Source of the DNA: Spirochaetia bacterium
GTDB lineage: Bacteria; Spirochaetota; Spirochaetia; SZUA-6; Bin103
Length of the DNA stretch: 64,000 nucleotides
Direction: 5' to 3'
Assembly: GCA_965203055.1 (NCBI GenBank)
Contig: OZ241863.1
Coordinates: 3,136,001 to 3,200,000, forward strand
Shown: piece after piece, positions 15,001 to 45,000 of the stretch
How positions within the stretch are numbered: the first letter of the stretch is position 1
How the letters are laid out: every line of letters starts with the position of its first letter
Made by a program: the position numbers

Positions 15001-18000
15001 CGGTACTGCGGCGTGGGCGGCATCGTCCGGTACACGATCGGGGCGGCCGCGTCGATCTCGTCGATGGTGGGAAGCCGAGGTTCGGACATGCCCGCACCCT
15101 AAGCCGGCAGCCTGCCGATAGGGAAGCGCGGGGGCCGGGTCGATTGGCGCGGTGGTTCGTGCGCGCTTCCGGCTATCCCTGCCGCCGGATGCCGGGGTAT
15201 TTTCAGGTACGCCATGGGAGCGTTCACGGTCGACTGCGAGCTGCAGGAACTTACCGGCAATCGGCCGGCGGTGAGCATCGCCGGGGTAATGGTGGACACC
15301 GGGTCCGAGTACACGTGGCTGCCGGAGCAGGTGCTCACCGCCGCCGGGGTGCGAGTGACCAAGAAGGAGGTGGCGTTCGTGATGGCGAACGGCACGACCA
15401 TCACGCGCGACATTGGCTACGCCTACCTGCGAAGCAGCGGATTCGAGACCGTTGACGAGGTGGTATTTGCGCGCCCCGGCGATCTGCGGCTGCTCGGCGC
15501 GCGCACGCTCGAGGGGTTCGCGGCGCTGGTCGATGCGCGCCGGAAGCGCCTGGTGGCCTCGGGACCGCTGCCGGTGGCATCCGGGAGCTGACCTGTCTCG
15601 AGCTGAGCATGCATTCGTTTCGCGACAACCGGCTGCGCGATCATCGGCTGCCGATGAGCACGGCGTGGCTGCTCAACGACATCGCCGAATACAAGGGGAA
15701 GCAGGAGCGGCTTTCCCGGCAGCCGCAGCAGGCCCGCAAGGCGCTCCGCGACTCGGCCGTGGTTCAGAGCGTGGAGTCCTCGAATCGAATCGAAGGGGTG
15801 ACGGTCGGCCGCGACCGGCTGGTGGCGCTGGTACTTGGCCGGTCGGCTGCCCGGGACCGTTCCGAACAGGAGATCCAGGGGTACCGCCGCGCGCTGGGCG
15901 AAATCCATTCCCGCTTCGCGGCGCCGCTCCCGGTTACGCCGGAAACCCTGCAACGGCTGCACGCCCATTGCCAGCCCACCAGCGGCGACGCCGGCCAATT
16001 CAAGCGCGTCGATAACGACATCGTCGAACTCCGGCCGGGACGCGCGCCGGTGGTCCGCTTCCGCTGCGTGCCGGCGCGAGACACCCCGGGCGCCGCGGCG
16101 GAGCTGTGCGCGCGCTACCGCCATGCCCTCGATCAGGACCGCATCCCGCCGCTGATCGCCGGCGCCGCGCTGGTCCTGGACTTTCTCTGCATCCACCCGT
16201 TTCGGGACGGCAACGGTCGCGTGTCGCGGCTGCTCACCCTCCTGACGCTCGACCAGCATGGCTACGAGGTGGGCCGCTACCTCAGCCTCGAACGCCTCAT
16301 CGAGGAGTCGAAGGAGGAGTACTACGCCTGCCTGCACCGTTGTTCGCAACGGTGGCACCAGGGCCGGCACGAACTGACGCCGTGGTTCAACTTCCTGTTC
16401 GCCATCATTCGCCGCGGCTACGTGGAGATGGAGGCGCGCGCCGCGCAGGTGACGGCTCCGCGCGGCGCAAAGGCGGCGCTGGTCCATGCCGCGATTCGCG
16501 CGCAGCCGGGCGAGTTTCGCCTGAGCGATCTGGAACGAGCTTGTCCGGGGGTTGGCCGGGAGTGGATTCGCACCCTGCTGGCCGACCTGAAACGGTCCGG
16601 CGGCGTCACCTGCGAAGGCCGCGGCCCCGGCGCCCGCTGGCGGCTCAAGAATAAGGAGGAATAAGGGTAGTAACGCCTGAGTAAGGGTAGTAGAGAGGGT
16701 ATCAACTGATCCGTTCGCGGACCTGCTCCCACGGCACCACCTGGTCGGGGTTGCTGCTGGCCACGGTGATCGGCCGCATCCGGTAGTGGTCGTAGAGGGT
16801 GGCGTAACCCTGCCGTTCGTCGTCGCTACGCGCCGCGGCCGCTTCCGGAACCACGTAACGCAGATCGACGCTCCAGCGCATCTCAGCGGTGGTGTTGAGG
16901 GTGCTGGCGTGGCAGGTGAGGTTGCTGAACGCCAGCAAGCCGCCACGCCTCATTGGCAGCACGACCGGCGCGGCGCGCTGCTCCACGTCGTCGAACATGC
17001 GCACGATTCGCTGGGAGTCGCGCGCCCCGCCGAGCAGCCCCCAACGGTGGCTGCCGGGAATGAGGTGCAGGCAGCCGTTGCGCTGATCCACGTCCACCAG
17101 CGGAATCCATACCGAGATCACGTGGAGGTGGCGGGTAGGGTTGCCGTAGTACTGGGTGTCCTGATGCCAGGGGGCGGAGGTAGCGTCGCTCTCGGGCACC
17201 TTGGCGCGCACCGCAAAGCTGCCTGTCCAGGCGACTTCCGGCCCCAGCAGCGCGGTCATCAGCGCCAGCAGCCGGGGGTGGCGCACGAACTGGAACAGCT
17301 CCCGCGAGGCCGCGGCGCGCGTTCGCAGCTCCCAGATGCGCACCGCCGCCCGCGCCTGCTCGCACAGCAACACCAGACGCCGGTTGAAGGGCTGATCGGC
17401 GAAGCGCGAGCTGACCTTGCCTTCTCGGAAGAGGCGGCCGGCGAGCTGATCCACCTCCTCCTCGATGGCCGCGCGCACCGGCTCCAGGTCCGCTTCGGTG
17501 AACGTTTCGGGCAGCAGCAGGTAGCCGTCGTTGCGGTACGCTTCGACGCGCGCTCGATCGATCACCGCCGCAGGCATCGCTCAAGTGTGGCATGCCCCGA
17601 TCACGGCGTCAAACTCGCGGCAGGCGTTCCCTGCGATACCATGCCGCCGGCCGGTATACTGGCCGGCACCCGATGCACCGGACGAGCAGCAGCCATTGGA
17701 TCGAGGTCACCGAGTCGGAGTACGCGTGGGAGCGGGAGGCGCTCCACTACCTGAAGACGCGGCTGCCGGACGGCGAGCCGTTTCGCGCGTGGTCCAACTT
17801 CGAGTTCATCGCCCATGACGGCAGCATCAACGAGGTCGATCTGCTGGTGGTGTCGCTGCACCACGTCTACTTGGTGGAGATCAAGAGTTGGCGCGGCGTG
17901 GTCTCCGGCGATCAGAGCACCTGGACCCGCCGCGTGGAGGGCAGGACGTTCCTGGCCGACAGCCCGCTGCTGCTGGCGAACCGCAAGGCGCGCAAGCTGG

Positions 18001-42000: not shown

Positions 42001-45000
42001 GCGGCGAAGCAACTCCTCAAGGCCGCTCAGGACGGTAATATCGGCCAGCTCCGGCGCCAGAGCATCCGCCTCACCGAGCTGCTCTCCTCGGTCACCGGCC
42101 ACGTCGAACGGGCCTCCGCCAGTTGGCCGTTCGACGTCGAGGATGAACGCGCCTATCTGGAGCAGCGCTTCGGCGCCGAGCTGCGCGCCGAAGCGGACCG
42201 CATCGGCCTGAACGTCACGCCCCGTGACGAGCGGCTGGTCTGCTCGCCGTCGATCATCCGGGTCAGCCCTGCCGACCGCGCCGTGACGATTGACGGCCGC
42301 AAGCGGAGCGCGATCCGCCCGTCAAAGCTCGCCGCCGACCTGCATGCGATCCAGCAGGCCGGTCCGCGCGGCAATCCGCAGCGCTTCCTGGAGGCGCTGC
42401 ACAAGGCCTACCGCATCCTGGCCCCGGCGCCGGCGGACTCCTTGATCCAAGGCGGGCAGGTGGTCGCCCTGGCCAAGGTCTACGCCCTGCTCACCACCTT
42501 GCCGGGGAGCGGCCGGCAGTACTCCAGGACCGACTTCGCGCGCGACCTCTACGTGCTCGACAGCTCGGCCGTGGACACCACCCGCTCCGGCGGCGCCCGG
42601 GTGAGCTTCCTCCACTCCACCGCCGCGCGCTCCGGCAAGGGAGCGTTTTCGTTCGCCGATCGGGCCGGCAACCTGATCACCTACTCCAGCATCCGGTTTA
42701 CGGAGGTCGGTTGATGCACGCCGCCGAGTGGCTCGATCACCTCGACCGGGAGTACCTGGCCACGTTCATCGCCGACGGCGGAGCCGCCGTCAAGTTCGTC
42801 GTGACCGGCGCCCAGGGCCGCGCGGACCTGATCCGGCGCCTGGCTCACACCGGTGAGGAGCGCGGCTATCTGGTCCTGACCGCCGACGCCGCCGAACAGC
42901 GGTTCCACATGCCGCAGGACCTGTTCTTCGCCATGGCCGCCCAGGTCGACTGGCGCCGCGCCGCGCGCCGCTTCATCATCCGGCTGGCGCAGGACGAAGG
43001 ATTTTCTGTCGACGGCGTAGACGCCGCTCAGGAAGGGGTGATCCGGTCCATCGCCGACCGCGCCGGGACCGGGATCGACGCCGGGTTTCTGTTCACCAGC
43101 CTGGCGCCGGCGCTGCAGCGCCGCCTGTACTTCGACCGGAACATGTCCAAGGACTTCCGCGTCGCCATGACCCATCTCTGTCTGCATGAGCGCTCCCTCG
43201 ACCAGCCGTATCAGGGGCAGGCGATCATCGACTGGCTGACCGGCAGGAACACCCGCATGTCCAACGTCAAGCAGTATTCCATCTTCACTCCCGTCAACCG
43301 CACCACGGCGCGCCACCTGCTGCGCTCGGCCTTCTACTGGTTCCGCAGCGCCGGCTATACCGGGACGATAGTGCTGCTGGACAACGAACGGGTGACCAGA
43401 CGCCTGCGGCCTGAGGATGGGTCGCGGTACTATACGCGAGCAATGACGATCGACCACTACGAATTGCTCCGCGAGTTCGTCGACGGCGCCGACCGCCTGC
43501 CGGCGACGTTGCTGGTCGTCTGTTCCGGCAGCGACTTCCTGGACCAGGAGGCGGACCGGCAGTCGCGCGGCGTCGGCATCTATCCCGCCTTGCAGACCAG
43601 GATCATCGATGACGTCCGCGACCGCACGCGGCAGAACCCGGCCGCCGCGCTGTGCCGGCTGGCCGGCTGAGGCCGCGATGCCGGAGAACCTGGACCGACT
43701 GGCCTGCCGCAGGGCGATAGAGGCGCTGCGCAACGGCGTGCCCAACCGGGAGGCGGTGCGCATTCTGGGCAGCACGCAGCCGCACGCCGAACGGCGCTTC
43801 CAGAAGCTCCTGCGGCGGGTGGAGGAGGGGAATGGCGCGGCGGCCGGCCGCGGGCTGCTGATCTCGGGCGACTTCGGCACCGGCAAGTCGCACCTGCTGG
43901 AGCATTTCGAGCACTTGGCCCTGGAGCGAAACTTCGTCTGCAGCCGGGTGGCGGTCAGCAAGGAGACGCCGTTCCATGACTTGGCCAGGATGTTCCGGTC
44001 GGCGGTCGATCACGGCACGGTCCCCGGCGGAAAGGTCGGTCTGATGGTGGACGAAATCGGCCACGGGTTGGACCCGGACTCCGACCGCTACGCGCGCTTC
44101 TTCCGCTGGGCGAACGACGACGACAACGGCCTGCACCGTATCTTTCCGGCCACGCTGATGGTGCACGAACGGTTGGGGGAACAGGACACGCTCAGCGCCA
44201 TCCGCTGGTTCTGGTCGGGCGACAAGATCGCGGTTGGCGAGGTCAAGAAGGGGCTGCGCCAGATCGGGCAACAGCGGTCGTATACCTTCCGCGCGCCGAA
44301 GCTGAAGGAGCTGCCGCCGCAGCGCCTGCGCTTCGTCCTGGAGATGGTCAAGGCGGCCGGTTATCACGGATGGGTCGTGCTGATCGACGAGCTGGAGCTG
44401 GTCGGGAGTTACAGCGTGCTGCAGCGCGCCCGCTCCTACGCCGAACTGACCCGCTGGATGGGCGAGAAGCGCGGCGATTATCCCGGACTGGTGGTCGTGG
44501 CGGCGATCACGGAAGACTTTGCCCAGGCGATCCTGGAGCAGAAGAAGGACCGCGTGAAGGTGCCGGAACGGCTGCGCGCGCGCGGTGACCTCGACACCTT
44601 GCGGTGGGCGGAGGCGGGCATGAAGTGGCTCGACTCGCGCCGCACGGCGCTCCACGAAGTGAAGCCGCAGGAGGTGGAGGCCGCGGTGGAGACGATCCGG
44701 CGCATCTACGGTACGGCGTACGACTGGCCGGCCCCACCGGCCGCCCCAACCCCGCCGGACGCCGCCGGCTATCAGAAGCGGATGCGCTACAAGGTCCGCG
44801 CGGCGATCACCACCTGGGACCTGCAGCGCCTGCATCCCGAGGCCCAGCCCGAGCTGGAGAGCGAGGAATACCATTCCTCCTACGCCGAAGATCCCGACGT
44901 GGCGGCCGAAACCAAAGACAACGACGACGCACCTCCCGCCCCGGCGGACCCTGCCGACTCCTGACGCCCCCCTGATCGGCTGACCCGCCCGCACCGGCCG

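Follow-up and report, generated by a model that had tools for sequence, protein, structure and literature searches.

An uncultured marine bacterium carries about a dozen dispersed methylase copies spanning three anti-phage systems; the copies differ in their DNA-reading part, which probably enables each system to cover several DNA motifs in parallel. Each of the three methylation-based systems, BREX type 2, BREX type 1 and DISARM class 1, is present with a single set of core genes, the first of them in the window, the whole stretch of 64,000 nucleotides of contig C1 that was analysed. Beyond the methylase inside each locus, the genome has four BREX-2 PglX genes, one BREX-1 PglX gene, and four copies of the DISARM methylase DrmMI plus three decayed ones. 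The best reading, to which we assign a probability of roughly one half, is that the flanks of these enzymes are homogenised, that their specificity cassettes are exchangeable, and that the orphan copies serve the single cores in trans; the last of these steps is inferred.

The first-pass annotation had described one BREX type 2 locus, and PglW, PglX, PglY and PglZ were all located in the window with NCBIfam models (Table 1). The genes pglW, pglX and pglZ share one locus, all on the + strand between 17592 and 38874, and each exceeds the cut-off of its model. PglY has NF047891 as its best match (E 0, aa 5-1166) at a score below the cut-off, and the two BrxD-like ORFs match weakly, far under the NF033438 cut-off of 350 bits. 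The extra 999-aa methylase begins 1 nt past the pglX stop. The Rpn remnant is of the same subfamily as the Rpn gene adjoining the orphan X_1342, and an intact gene stands at the same place in genome G017.

Table 1. Features of the BREX type 2 locus, in window coordinates
Feature	Position	Strand	Basis
pglW, BREX-2 Ser/Thr kinase with NERD domain	17592..21719	+	NF033442, 1327.9 bits (cut-off 990); Pfam Pkinase, NERD
DUF1828 gene, overlapping the pglX start	23335..24150	+	Pfam PF08861, E 1.8e-19; PADLOC PDC-M24B, weak
pglX, in-locus copy (X_locus), 1223 aa, NPPY at aa 379	24119..27790	+	NF033451, 1578 bits (cut-off 400); Pfam Eco57I, MmeI_Mtase, DUF7008
pglX variable region, candidate specificity region, aa ~360-800; module 1 aa ~360/420-680, module 2 aa 680-800	25196..26518	+	windowed identity; cross-genome identity for cassette limits; sub-threshold TaqI_C
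Extra 999-aa N6-adenine methylase, type IIG kind	27792..30791	+	Pfam N6_Mtase; PADLOC REase_MTase_IIG, 251.7 bits
GmrSD-type restriction gene (type IV), nested in the BREX locus	30823..32496	+	Pfam GmrSD_N, GmrSD_C
Rpn (Transposase_31) gene remnant, 3' part	32516..32816	+	blastn, 79-85% identity; tblastn in G017
pglY, BREX-2 ATPase	32909..36577	+	NF047891, 1016.9 bits, best match, below cut-off 1700
pglZ, BREX-2 phosphatase	36574..38874	+	NF033446, 628.3 bits (cut-off 200)
Nested NsnB-like / OLD-family ABC ATPase	40561..41748	+	PADLOC NsnB, 334 bits; Pfam AAA_15, DUF3696
Two overlapping BrxD-like ATPase ORFs, 42711-43670 and 43609-44964	42711..44964	+	Pfam BrxC_BrxD; NF033438, 37.6 and 64.3 bits

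Exactly five full-length PglX genes were found by tblastn, as had been claimed: the in-locus copy and four orphans, whose sites were confirmed at contig positions 1342279-1345920 (X_1342), 1969838-1973488 (X_1969), 2761868-2765578 (X_2761) and 3530346-3533999. Besides these, tblastn returned two short C-terminal fragments (the last 35-63 residues), neither of them near the BREX locus. All four orphans pass NF033451 (1573-1615 bits, model positions 1 to ~1180), and all five frames are intact with the NPPY catalytic motif. The reported pattern of conserved ends and a divergent centre was recovered, with identities of 93-97% over aa 20-400 and 95-97% over aa 810-1200, and protein identity of 45-58% in the central block (aa 490-790), where one pair reaches 81%. 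The orphan start corresponds to the second Met of in-locus pglX, at position 24140, and homology between copies is confined to the gene, setting in 15-60 nt ahead of the start and ending ~30 nt short of the stop. Orphans are not beside other BREX genes; they stand among genes for transporters, sulfatases and dehydrogenases and among Rpn, Uma2 and HNH genes. Contigs of four public runs from four studies cover the two junctions of X_2761 as well as its variable block, indicating that this copy is not an assembly artefact.

Multiple PglX copies in relatives were also borne out: among 24 genomes of the family, G009 has three copies, and G021 has four intact copies and one frameshifted. One PglZ-2 and one PglW above cut-off were present in each of the five carrier genomes, and one DrmA per genome. 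Among 301 genomes of the family of G324 (labelled Streptomyces), 50 carriers had one DUF7008 match and two had two matches, and none of the 301 had three or more.

The PglX block is a candidate target-recognition domain (TRD), a label based on where the block lies and on TaqI_C matches below threshold rather than on a confidently assigned fold. Pfam TaqI_C was matched in 14 of 14 homologues (best E 2e-4, all below the Pfam cut-off), the AlphaFold model of aa 540-770 had a pLDDT of 26-59, and hhalign of the block with the DrmMI TRD profile gave a probability of 0.14%. Fold matches were CamA, BrxX, M.BseCI and DrdV, which are methylases carrying a TRD after the catalytic domain. No partial pglX copy bearing the variable block was found by tblastn of the genome, nor were adjacent partial inverted copies of the shufflon kind.

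The second set of five mosaic enzymes, which the first-pass annotation called MmeI-type, is real, but the name was wrong: the set is DrmMI, the DISARM class 1 methylase. The best full-length match of the one copy scanned was PADLOC DrmMI PDLC02643 (1289.5 bits, positions 5-1328 of 1347). Pfam matched Eco57I, MmeI_Mtase, MmeI_TRD and N6_Mtase alone in all five proteins, and aa 1-540 had no match (E<=1e-4). The MmeI-family type IIL assignment, for which an N-terminal nuclease, a helical spacer and a C-terminal domain would be expected besides the methylase and TRD, was not supported: at E<=1e-4, Pfam detected neither the nuclease nor the helicase nor the C-terminal domain of MmeI. The mosaic itself was confirmed, identity being 80-100% outside aa ~1040-1160 and 35-88% within that stretch. 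The NPPY/NPPW-type motif proposed for all ten proteins is indeed NPPY in PglX, but it is NPPF, not NPPW, in the five DrmMI. The in-locus copy M_2594 is flanked by DrmD (985 bits), DrmA (901.7), DrmB (272.6) and DrmC (265.6), and all five genes of DISARM class 1 (drmD, drmMI, drmA, drmB, drmC) are present once as a locus (C1:2588-2621 kb, PADLOC). Compared with DISARM class 1, the locus here extends over 33 kb because other defence genes are nested in it, and drmMI exists as one copy in this complete locus, four extra orphans and three further degraded copies. Among the five, one lacks the first ~41 codons; with three of the eight copies decayed and one 5'-truncated, not every copy is maintained.

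The claim of a single set of BREX cores holds for BREX-2, but a separate, probable BREX-1 locus lies at C1:3408-3428 kb, and its PglX and one orphan copy show the same mosaic. PglZ_1_B was matched there at 905 bits (cut-off 400) and BrxC at 255 bits with its C-terminal part scanned. BREX-1 PglX scored 305 bits on the BREX-1 model (cut-off 500) and 1567-1584 bits on PADLOC PglX PDLC02528, and both BREX-1 PglX carry NVPY. The mosaic-plus-orphan pattern is found in three enzyme families and four genomes.

Outside the block, the copies are kept alike within each genome and evolve under purifying selection. In PglX trees of the flanks (aa 20-400 and 810-1200), the copies of this genome (G000, five), G009 (three) and G021 (five) each formed one clade with support of 100/99-100. 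In the DrmMI flank tree (aa 40-1000), those of G000 (five) and G017 (three) each formed one clade (100/99), and the four copies of G009 grouped together (100/100) with the single G021 copy nested among them. Flank dN/dS was 0.11-0.29 for PglX, 0.18-0.28 for DrmMI and 0.21-0.23 for the BREX-1 pair, values which, as pairwise paralog averages over both lineages and converted tracts, cannot prove selection on each orphan.

The putative DNA-reading blocks represent old, separate lineages that different genomes have in common, and they pass between in-locus and orphan copies in the form of one or two cassettes. A single G000 clade was rejected in the PglX block tree (aa 490-790, AU p 5e-44), which recovered five cross-genome block types with support of 87-100, and was also rejected in the DrmMI block tree (aa 1040-1200, AU p 8.6e-60). 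Four block types are represented among the in-locus PglX copies of five genomes (A, E, E, C, D), among which A, C and D were also found in orphans elsewhere, and the block of the in-locus DrmMI of G009 matches that of the orphan M_1765 at 80%. One PglX cassette (aa ~360/420-680) is shared across genomes, and a second module (aa 680-800) assorts independently; X_locus and X_1969 have module 1 in common and differ in module 2.

Flank dS was 0.06-0.23 and block dS about 0.6 to saturated, a 10-30-fold higher synonymous divergence in the blocks. Saturated block dS beside a flank dS of ~0.1 cannot be explained by simple duplication followed by divergence, so the caveat that recent duplication rather than conversion produced the copies was ruled out in this simple form. 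The dS ratio, the discordant trees and the cassettes shared across genomes support and strengthen the central idea of the first-pass annotation, namely that the copies would be alleles with exchanged specificity regions. The four-gamete test failed for 173 of 300 and for 371 of 630 informative-site pairs in the flanks. The incompatible sites showed no significant clustering (p 0.78 and 0.057), and 6 of 20 longest-identical-run tests gave p<0.05 uncorrected, none of which would survive correction, so that nothing points to long conversion tracts of recent date. Repeated duplication of the resident gene, with cassette replacement afterwards, could also produce the flank clades.

At least three PglX orphans are lineage-specific insertions absent from relatives. 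Empty sites were found for X_2761 in G009, for X_1342 plus Rpn in G009, G005, G008 and G007, and for X_1969 plus Uma2 in G007 and G003; X_1342 and its Rpn gene were inserted as a single block, as were X_1969 and Uma2. An identical junction with the end of the Rpn gene unit is shared by X_1342 and the two PglX fragments, and 49 nt of it are kept in X_1969. One PglX orphan was copied from a BREX locus; X_1969 retains the pglX stop and, in the 3'-end alignment, the first 8 nt of the downstream gene of the locus (start codon and 5 nt). The noted proximity of PglX orphans to Rpn genes stood for this genome, in which three of four lie <=2 kb from a Transposase_31 match compared with 7.7% of random 3.7-kb segments, but not as a general feature, since it is absent at all eight DrmMI copies here and at most orphans in relatives. 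HNH-family genes follow three of the eight DrmMI copies and all six DrmMI C-terminal fragments.

In our preferred reading, the flanks would be the partner-facing parts of the enzymes, and their uniformity would be maintained by gene conversion between copies or by homologous cassette replacement from incoming DNA, so that every copy could bind the single core. For the type V BREX of Haloarcula, it is reported that two PglX paralogs inside the locus each methylate a motif of their own and that both need the shared ATPases (10.64898/2026.04.28.721311). In E. coli BREX-1, BrxX alone is described as not methylating (10.1101/2024.04.12.589305); by analogy, the BREX-1 orphan here, although intact, would be inactive unless it had the distant core.

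Alternatively, the orphans may be solitary methylases outside core-based defence, which would either methylate additional motifs as a means of gene regulation or shield the chromosome in advance from BREX, DISARM or restriction systems that arrive with the same specificity. They do lie among housekeeping genes and far from the cores, their block types are common to defence loci of neighbouring lineages, as such a "vaccination" role would require, and the BREX-2 PglX of S. coelicolor reportedly methylates DNA in vitro alone (as cited in 10.1101/2024.04.12.589305), so that BREX-2 orphans need not use the core. We consider this unlikely, because it leaves unexplained why ~800 residues outside the catalytic core, DUF7008 included, are 93-97% alike and under purifying selection with the in-locus copy, and because the BREX-1 type enzyme, reported to require the complex to methylate (10.1101/2024.04.12.589305), shows the same orphan pattern.

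Quite improbable is a reservoir of specificity cassettes, in which the in-locus copy alone would defend and would at times be re-specified via gene conversion from an orphan, like silent pilin or hsdS cassettes. The same block types in the locus of one genome and an orphan of another, the half-shared modules of X_locus and X_1969, and the frequent four-gamete failures in the flanks would all fit, but silent cassettes need no start codon, conserved leader, catalytic motif or intact 1200-codon frame, and the four PglX orphans have all of these. Moreover, in the contigs of the four runs, which can hide rare variants, the X_2761 block had the depth of a single copy and its own junctions, and no contig had a different block at that site. 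About equally improbable is that the copies are neutral and decaying, left behind by segmental duplication or by mobile nuclease genes (Rpn, HNH, Uma2) dragging adjacent DNA, for which the shared Rpn-unit junction with its 49-nt remainder, the two jointly inserted blocks, the HNH-family genes after DrmMI copies and fragments and the three decayed DrmMI copies speak, but neutral copies would retain neither a dN/dS of 0.1-0.3 nor five specificity blocks that are old and distinct, the pattern is repeated across enzyme families and genomes, and no Rpn gene is near any DrmMI copy.

Recognition-domain exchange between alleles or paralogs with conserved flanks is known from Type I hsdS, Type III mod and Type IIG genes, and in Staphylococcus aureus Sau1, with a single hsdR and several hsdMS, distant specificity units serve one effector gene. 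The present case has conserved flanks and swapped recognition domains in common with these, whereas the enzyme families and systems differ. PglX is described as the BREX specificity factor, retargetable by recognition-domain engineering (Went et al. 2024, PMC11341690; Drobiazko et al., 10.1101/2024.04.12.589305), and the candidate TRD resembles the engineered one, which is reported to be the most variable part, to have two subdomains and to set the motif for methylation and defence (10.1101/2024.04.12.589305). Both studies concern single-copy BREX-1 PglX, and neither was found to discuss natural multi-copy sets. In BREX-1 pglX shufflons (programmed inversions), such as that of Lacticaseibacillus rhamnosus, the middle of PglX likewise varies between constant N- and C-termini, but partial inverted cassettes and a recombinase are reported to adjoin the gene, with one variant expressed at a time (Milman et al. 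2023, PMC9881135); here the genes are full-length and dispersed, and no inversion system was seen in the tblastn search for partial copies. A two-methylase BREX has already been shown in Haloarcula (10.64898/2026.04.28.721311). Like the type V BREX of Haloarcula hispanica (BrxX1, BrxX2), the present BREX systems combine one core with more than one PglX paralog, whose activity here is predicted. BrxX1 and BrxX2 are described as lying inside the locus, being 53% identical overall and making m4C (10.64898/2026.04.28.721311), whereas the copies here number up to five, are dispersed along the chromosome and are 93-97% alike outside the block, and the pattern is seen in BREX-2, BREX-1 and DISARM. 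Concerted evolution of ~900 flank codons in five dispersed BREX or DISARM methylase copies was not found in print in our literature search.

If orphans serve the single cores in trans, each would add one more recognition motif for methylation and defence, and a phage would need modification at all motifs to escape.

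A tblastn search with the protein encoded inside the BREX type 2 locus as the query recovered five full-length PglX genes, at the coordinates listed in the first-pass annotation, and two fragments that cover just the final 35-63 residues. One copy (X_locus) lies in the locus, and the other four are orphans named by their kb position (X_1342, X_1969, X_2761, and X_3530). All five had an open frame and the NPPY motif, with the orphans at 1573-1615 bits against the model of BREX-2 PglX. Protein identity between the copies was 93-97% over residues 20-400 and 95-97% over residues 810-1200 (hereafter the flanks), against 45-58% over residues 490-790 (the block) with one pair at 81%; the annotated figures inside and outside the central block were thus reproduced. 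Homology between the copies was limited to the gene, from a point 15-60 nt ahead of the start codon to roughly 30 nt short of the stop, so that the C-terminal tail is particular to each orphan. Among the copies, X_2761 was checked against public runs. Contigs from four runs of four studies, two of them labelled sponge or marine metagenome and two bearing codes, covered both junctions and the variable block, whose depth equalled that of the single-copy flanks, indicating that this copy is not an assembly artefact. Where contig joints skipped the gene, each side was only 20-22 letters long; these joints were flagged as unreliable and left out.

The flank dS between PglX copies was 0.06-0.16, with a dN/dS of 0.11-0.29, whereas the block dS was 0.60 in the closest pair and ranged from 1.1 to saturated in the remaining nine pairs, indicating that the block is far older than the flanks. 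Recent duplication had been offered earlier as another source of the high flank identity, but duplication followed by fast divergence is contradicted by these values. Trees were built with the five copies of this genome (G000), three of the same-genus relative G009, and, from other genomes of the family, five of G021 and one each of G011 and G017. For each genome, the flank trees placed its copies in one clade (support 100/99-100). In the block tree, a single G000 clade was rejected (AU p 5e-44), and five block types cut across the genomes. The in-locus copies identified by flanking synteny (X_locus, G009a, G021e, G011, and G017) were of types A, E, E, C, and D, respectively, and types A, C, and D were found as orphans in other genomes.

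Cross-genome nucleotide identity delimited a module 1 from residue ~360 or 420 to 680, the start of which takes in the NPPY region in two types, and a module 2 at residues 680-800 that assorts separately. X_locus and X_1969 have module 1 in common. Module 2 of X_locus resembles those of G011 and G009c, one of the G009 copies, and that of the other four G000 copies is of one kind, like G017's. Within the cassette, nucleotide identity was 80-93% between X_3530 and G011 and 83-94% between X_2761 and G017, at or above the flank identity between those genomes, which suggests exchange between lineages. The four-gamete test failed for 173 of 300 and 371 of 630 informative-site pairs in the flanks. 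Recent long conversion tracts were not detected: for 6 of the 20 comparisons the longest identical runs beat simulation at p<0.05, a result that none would keep after correction. Nor was clustering of incompatible neighbouring sites detected (permutation p 0.78 and 0.057).

The block is a putative target-recognition domain (TRD), so labelled because it follows the methylase domain and because TaqI_C matches were obtained, below threshold, in all 14 homologues. An AlphaFold2 model of residues 190-830 from 28 sequences was confident for the methylase domain only; with a pLDDT of 26-59 in the block, fold matches gave nothing firm on it. The sole solved structure matched by sequence was CamA (E 1e-5), in the methylase domain.

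The BREX type 2 locus of the first-pass annotation was recovered on this single-contig genome of 4.56 Mb (68.8% G+C). PglW, PglX, and PglZ exceeded the NCBI curated cut-offs, PglY matched its own model best at a score below the cut-off of that model, and two overlapping ORFs were weakly BrxD-like. The type IIG-like methylase nested in the locus is also present in the BREX locus of G017 at ~92% protein identity. The housekeeping gene Ldh_2 shows 80% nucleotide identity between the two genera, and the higher value of the methylase suggests transfer of the BREX locus between them. Outside the window, a PglW-like kinase reached 234 bits against the PglW model, short of the cut-off, and may belong to a MADS-type system; its ORF of 1394 aa adjoins one of 1893 aa.

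Coordinates of the defence loci, methylase copies, and insertion sites (window positions where so marked)
Feature	Position	Strand	Remark
BREX type 2 locus	window 17592-44964	+	contains X_locus
999-aa type IIG-like methylase, then GmrSD gene	window 27792-32496		between pglX and pglY; methylase start 1 base past pglX stop
Rpn gene remnant, 300 nt	between GmrSD and pglY		nested in BREX-2 locus
NsnB-like ATPase and unassigned ORFs	downstream part of BREX-2 locus		nested genes
DrmMI C-terminus-like fragment	window 12038-12186		
Frameshifted HNH-family gene	window 12562-14007		follows the fragment
PglW-like kinase	G000:C1:3585433-3587505		outside window
Probable BREX type 1 locus	G000:C1:3408125-3427686		outside window; BrxC, PglX, PglZ type 1B; SIR2-HerA and HEC-01 nested
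BREX-1 PglX orphan	656250-659750		outside window; adjoins murJ
DISARM class 1 locus	G000:C1:2588025-2620613		outside window; drmD, drmMI (M_2594), drmA, drmB, drmC; stretched over 33 kb
Druantia type III pair	2560877-2569171		20 kb upstream of DISARM locus
IS-split DrmMI copy	G000:C1:1398165-1405275		outside window; 3.3-kb IS21-like element (IstB and Mu-type transposase) exactly at variable-block start
Intact DrmMI of G021 (L120)	G021:C1:585438-589361		
Ldh_2-PhyH site	L083:7939-11393; G007:C5:7249755-7254919; G001:C1:3987011-4001494; G010:C1:4252922-4284504		

The sites of the orphans were compared with those in relatives of the same genus. The X_2761 site is empty in G009, where Ldh_2 adjoins PhyH, but three genus members hold other inserts of 5, 14, and 31 kb there, which marks the site as a hot spot of recurrent insertion. 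X_1342 and an Rpn gene form a 5-kb block between transporter and sulfatase genes, which are separated by 27-146 bp in G009, G005, and G008 and by 1054 bp in G007. In G007 and G003, the sequences that flank the block of X_1969 and Uma2 are separated by 48 and 81 bp, respectively. Two inverted Rpn genes bracket X_3530 at a synteny break, and the flanks of this orphan were adjacent in no genus genome where both were found.

At the 3′ end of X_1969, the pglX stop is followed by the start codon and five bases of the locus's next methylase gene, and then by a 49-nt end piece of an Rpn gene. The junction with an Rpn gene end, again of this subfamily, is identical in X_1342 and both PglX fragments, and that Rpn gene is intact inside the G017 BREX locus, at the place of the G000 remnant. 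The simplest explanation derives the orphans from a BREX-locus segment running from pglX through the Rpn gene. For X_1342 and X_1969, such descent accounts for the association with Rpn as well as transport by it would. Rpn as the general vehicle was rejected: no Rpn match falls within 2 kb of any of the eight DrmMI or degraded DrmMI copies (see below), and at the relatives' PglX loci Rpn was found only ~5 kb upstream of G021c, a G021 copy, and inside the G017 BREX locus. Transposase_31 (Rpn) has 57 matches in the 4.56-Mb genome, and many of them are clustered in tandem, for example at 789-826 kb.

A second family of five proteins (1305-1353 aa) had been reported as MmeI-family enzymes with the same mosaic. 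The family label failed, since a Pfam methylase domain and MmeI_TRD were matched but none of MmeI's other domains, and the one copy scanned matched PADLOC's DrmMI, the DISARM class 1 methylase, over its whole length. The mosaic stood, with the evolutionary pattern of PglX in both dS and trees. The dS was 0.13-0.23 (dN/dS 0.18-0.28) in the flanks and 0.7 to saturated in the block. In the flank tree (residues 40-1000), G000's five and G017's three copies formed one clade each (100/99), and G009's four grouped at 100/100 with the single G021 copy nested among them; in the block (residues 1040-1200), a single clade was rejected (AU p 8.6e-60). The block of the G009 in-locus copy matched that of the orphan M_1765, which lacks the first ~41 codons, at 80%. 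No block shared between the families was found, the best BLASTP match having an E of 0.005 (23% identity over 81 aa). In a profile comparison of the block of PglX with the TRD of DrmMI, hhalign gave a probability of 0.14%.

Three further DrmMI copies are degraded: one is split by an IS21-type element, one is frameshifted, and one has a large deletion. Multiple copies were found in G000, G009 (four intact), and G017 (three) among 24 genomes; 12 of the remaining 21 had one (two of these split into two matches), G021 had one intact and one split, and eight had none. DrmA occurs once per genome. The intact copy of G021, which belongs to another genus, shares 94-95% flank protein identity with the G009 copies, and both drmA and drmMI are split in G021's own DISARM locus. 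NsnB-like, HEC-01 A/B, QatA-like, and PDC-M38A genes are nested in the G000 DISARM locus, and the nearby Druantia pair consists of DruH and of DruE in two ORFs. A ~500-aa HNH gene family occupies about 50 places in the genome. A copy lies at most 650 nt downstream, in the same orientation, of all six DrmMI C-terminal fragments and of three of the eight DrmMI copies.

The third case is the probable BREX type 1 system, in which two ~1190-aa proteins, both PglX by PADLOC, were 92-100% alike except for ~120 residues at 25-60%. Their dS was 0.11-0.17 in the flanks and 1.08 in the block.

In a sample of 301 phylum genomes, DUF7008 at E<=1e-60 was present in G000 only. In the family of G324 (labelled Streptomyces), 52 of 301 genomes had DUF7008, 50 once, two twice, and none more often, and the five nearest outside genomes checked had one copy each. 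Full-text searches, subscription journals and supplements excepted, turned up no account of PglX or DrmMI in several dispersed copies that keep their flanks conserved, and neither 'orphan' nor 'paralog' occurs in a 2026 BREX survey (PMC12839542).

We infer that the orphans work with the single cores, based on their intact frames and motifs, on purifying selection and homogenisation across ~800-1000 non-DNA-reading residues, and on the repetition of the pattern in three systems. By analogy, Haloarcula type V BREX offers a precedent, as its two in-locus PglX are reported to have a motif each and to need shared ATPases (10.64898/2026.04.28.721311). E. coli BrxX is reported to be inactive alone (10.1101/2024.04.12.589305); if the same applies here, the BREX-1 orphan would serve no purpose without its distant core. 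However, BREX-2 PglX is reported to be active alone in vitro (cited in 10.1101/2024.04.12.589305), which counts against the orphans needing a core, and the decay of some DrmMI copies counts against their working with one. The full reading, to which we give a chance of roughly one in five, joins orphans as trans-acting specificity subunits with 3′ nuclease breaks repaired from paralogs into an engine diversifying innate immune specificity. With the orphans, BREX-2, BREX-1, and DISARM, which have a single core apiece, would each cover as many as five motifs. The Rpn, HNH, and Uma2 nuclease genes at the orphans' 3′ ends would make breaks, and repair from a paralog would homogenise the flanks and shuffle the two specificity modules.

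A BREX or DISARM system is usually viewed as one locus with one motif. The natural chimeras on near-identical scaffolds described here comprise five PglX, five DrmMI, and two BREX-1 PglX, with two independently assorting modules, and given a methylome, the rules of motif reading could be derived from this set. If the orphans plug into a single core, locus-only predictions would underestimate defence repertoires, and phage escape by chance methylation would become multiplicatively harder. The conserved flanks would then mark core-contact surfaces, which would be useful for the unsolved mechanisms of BREX-2 and DISARM.
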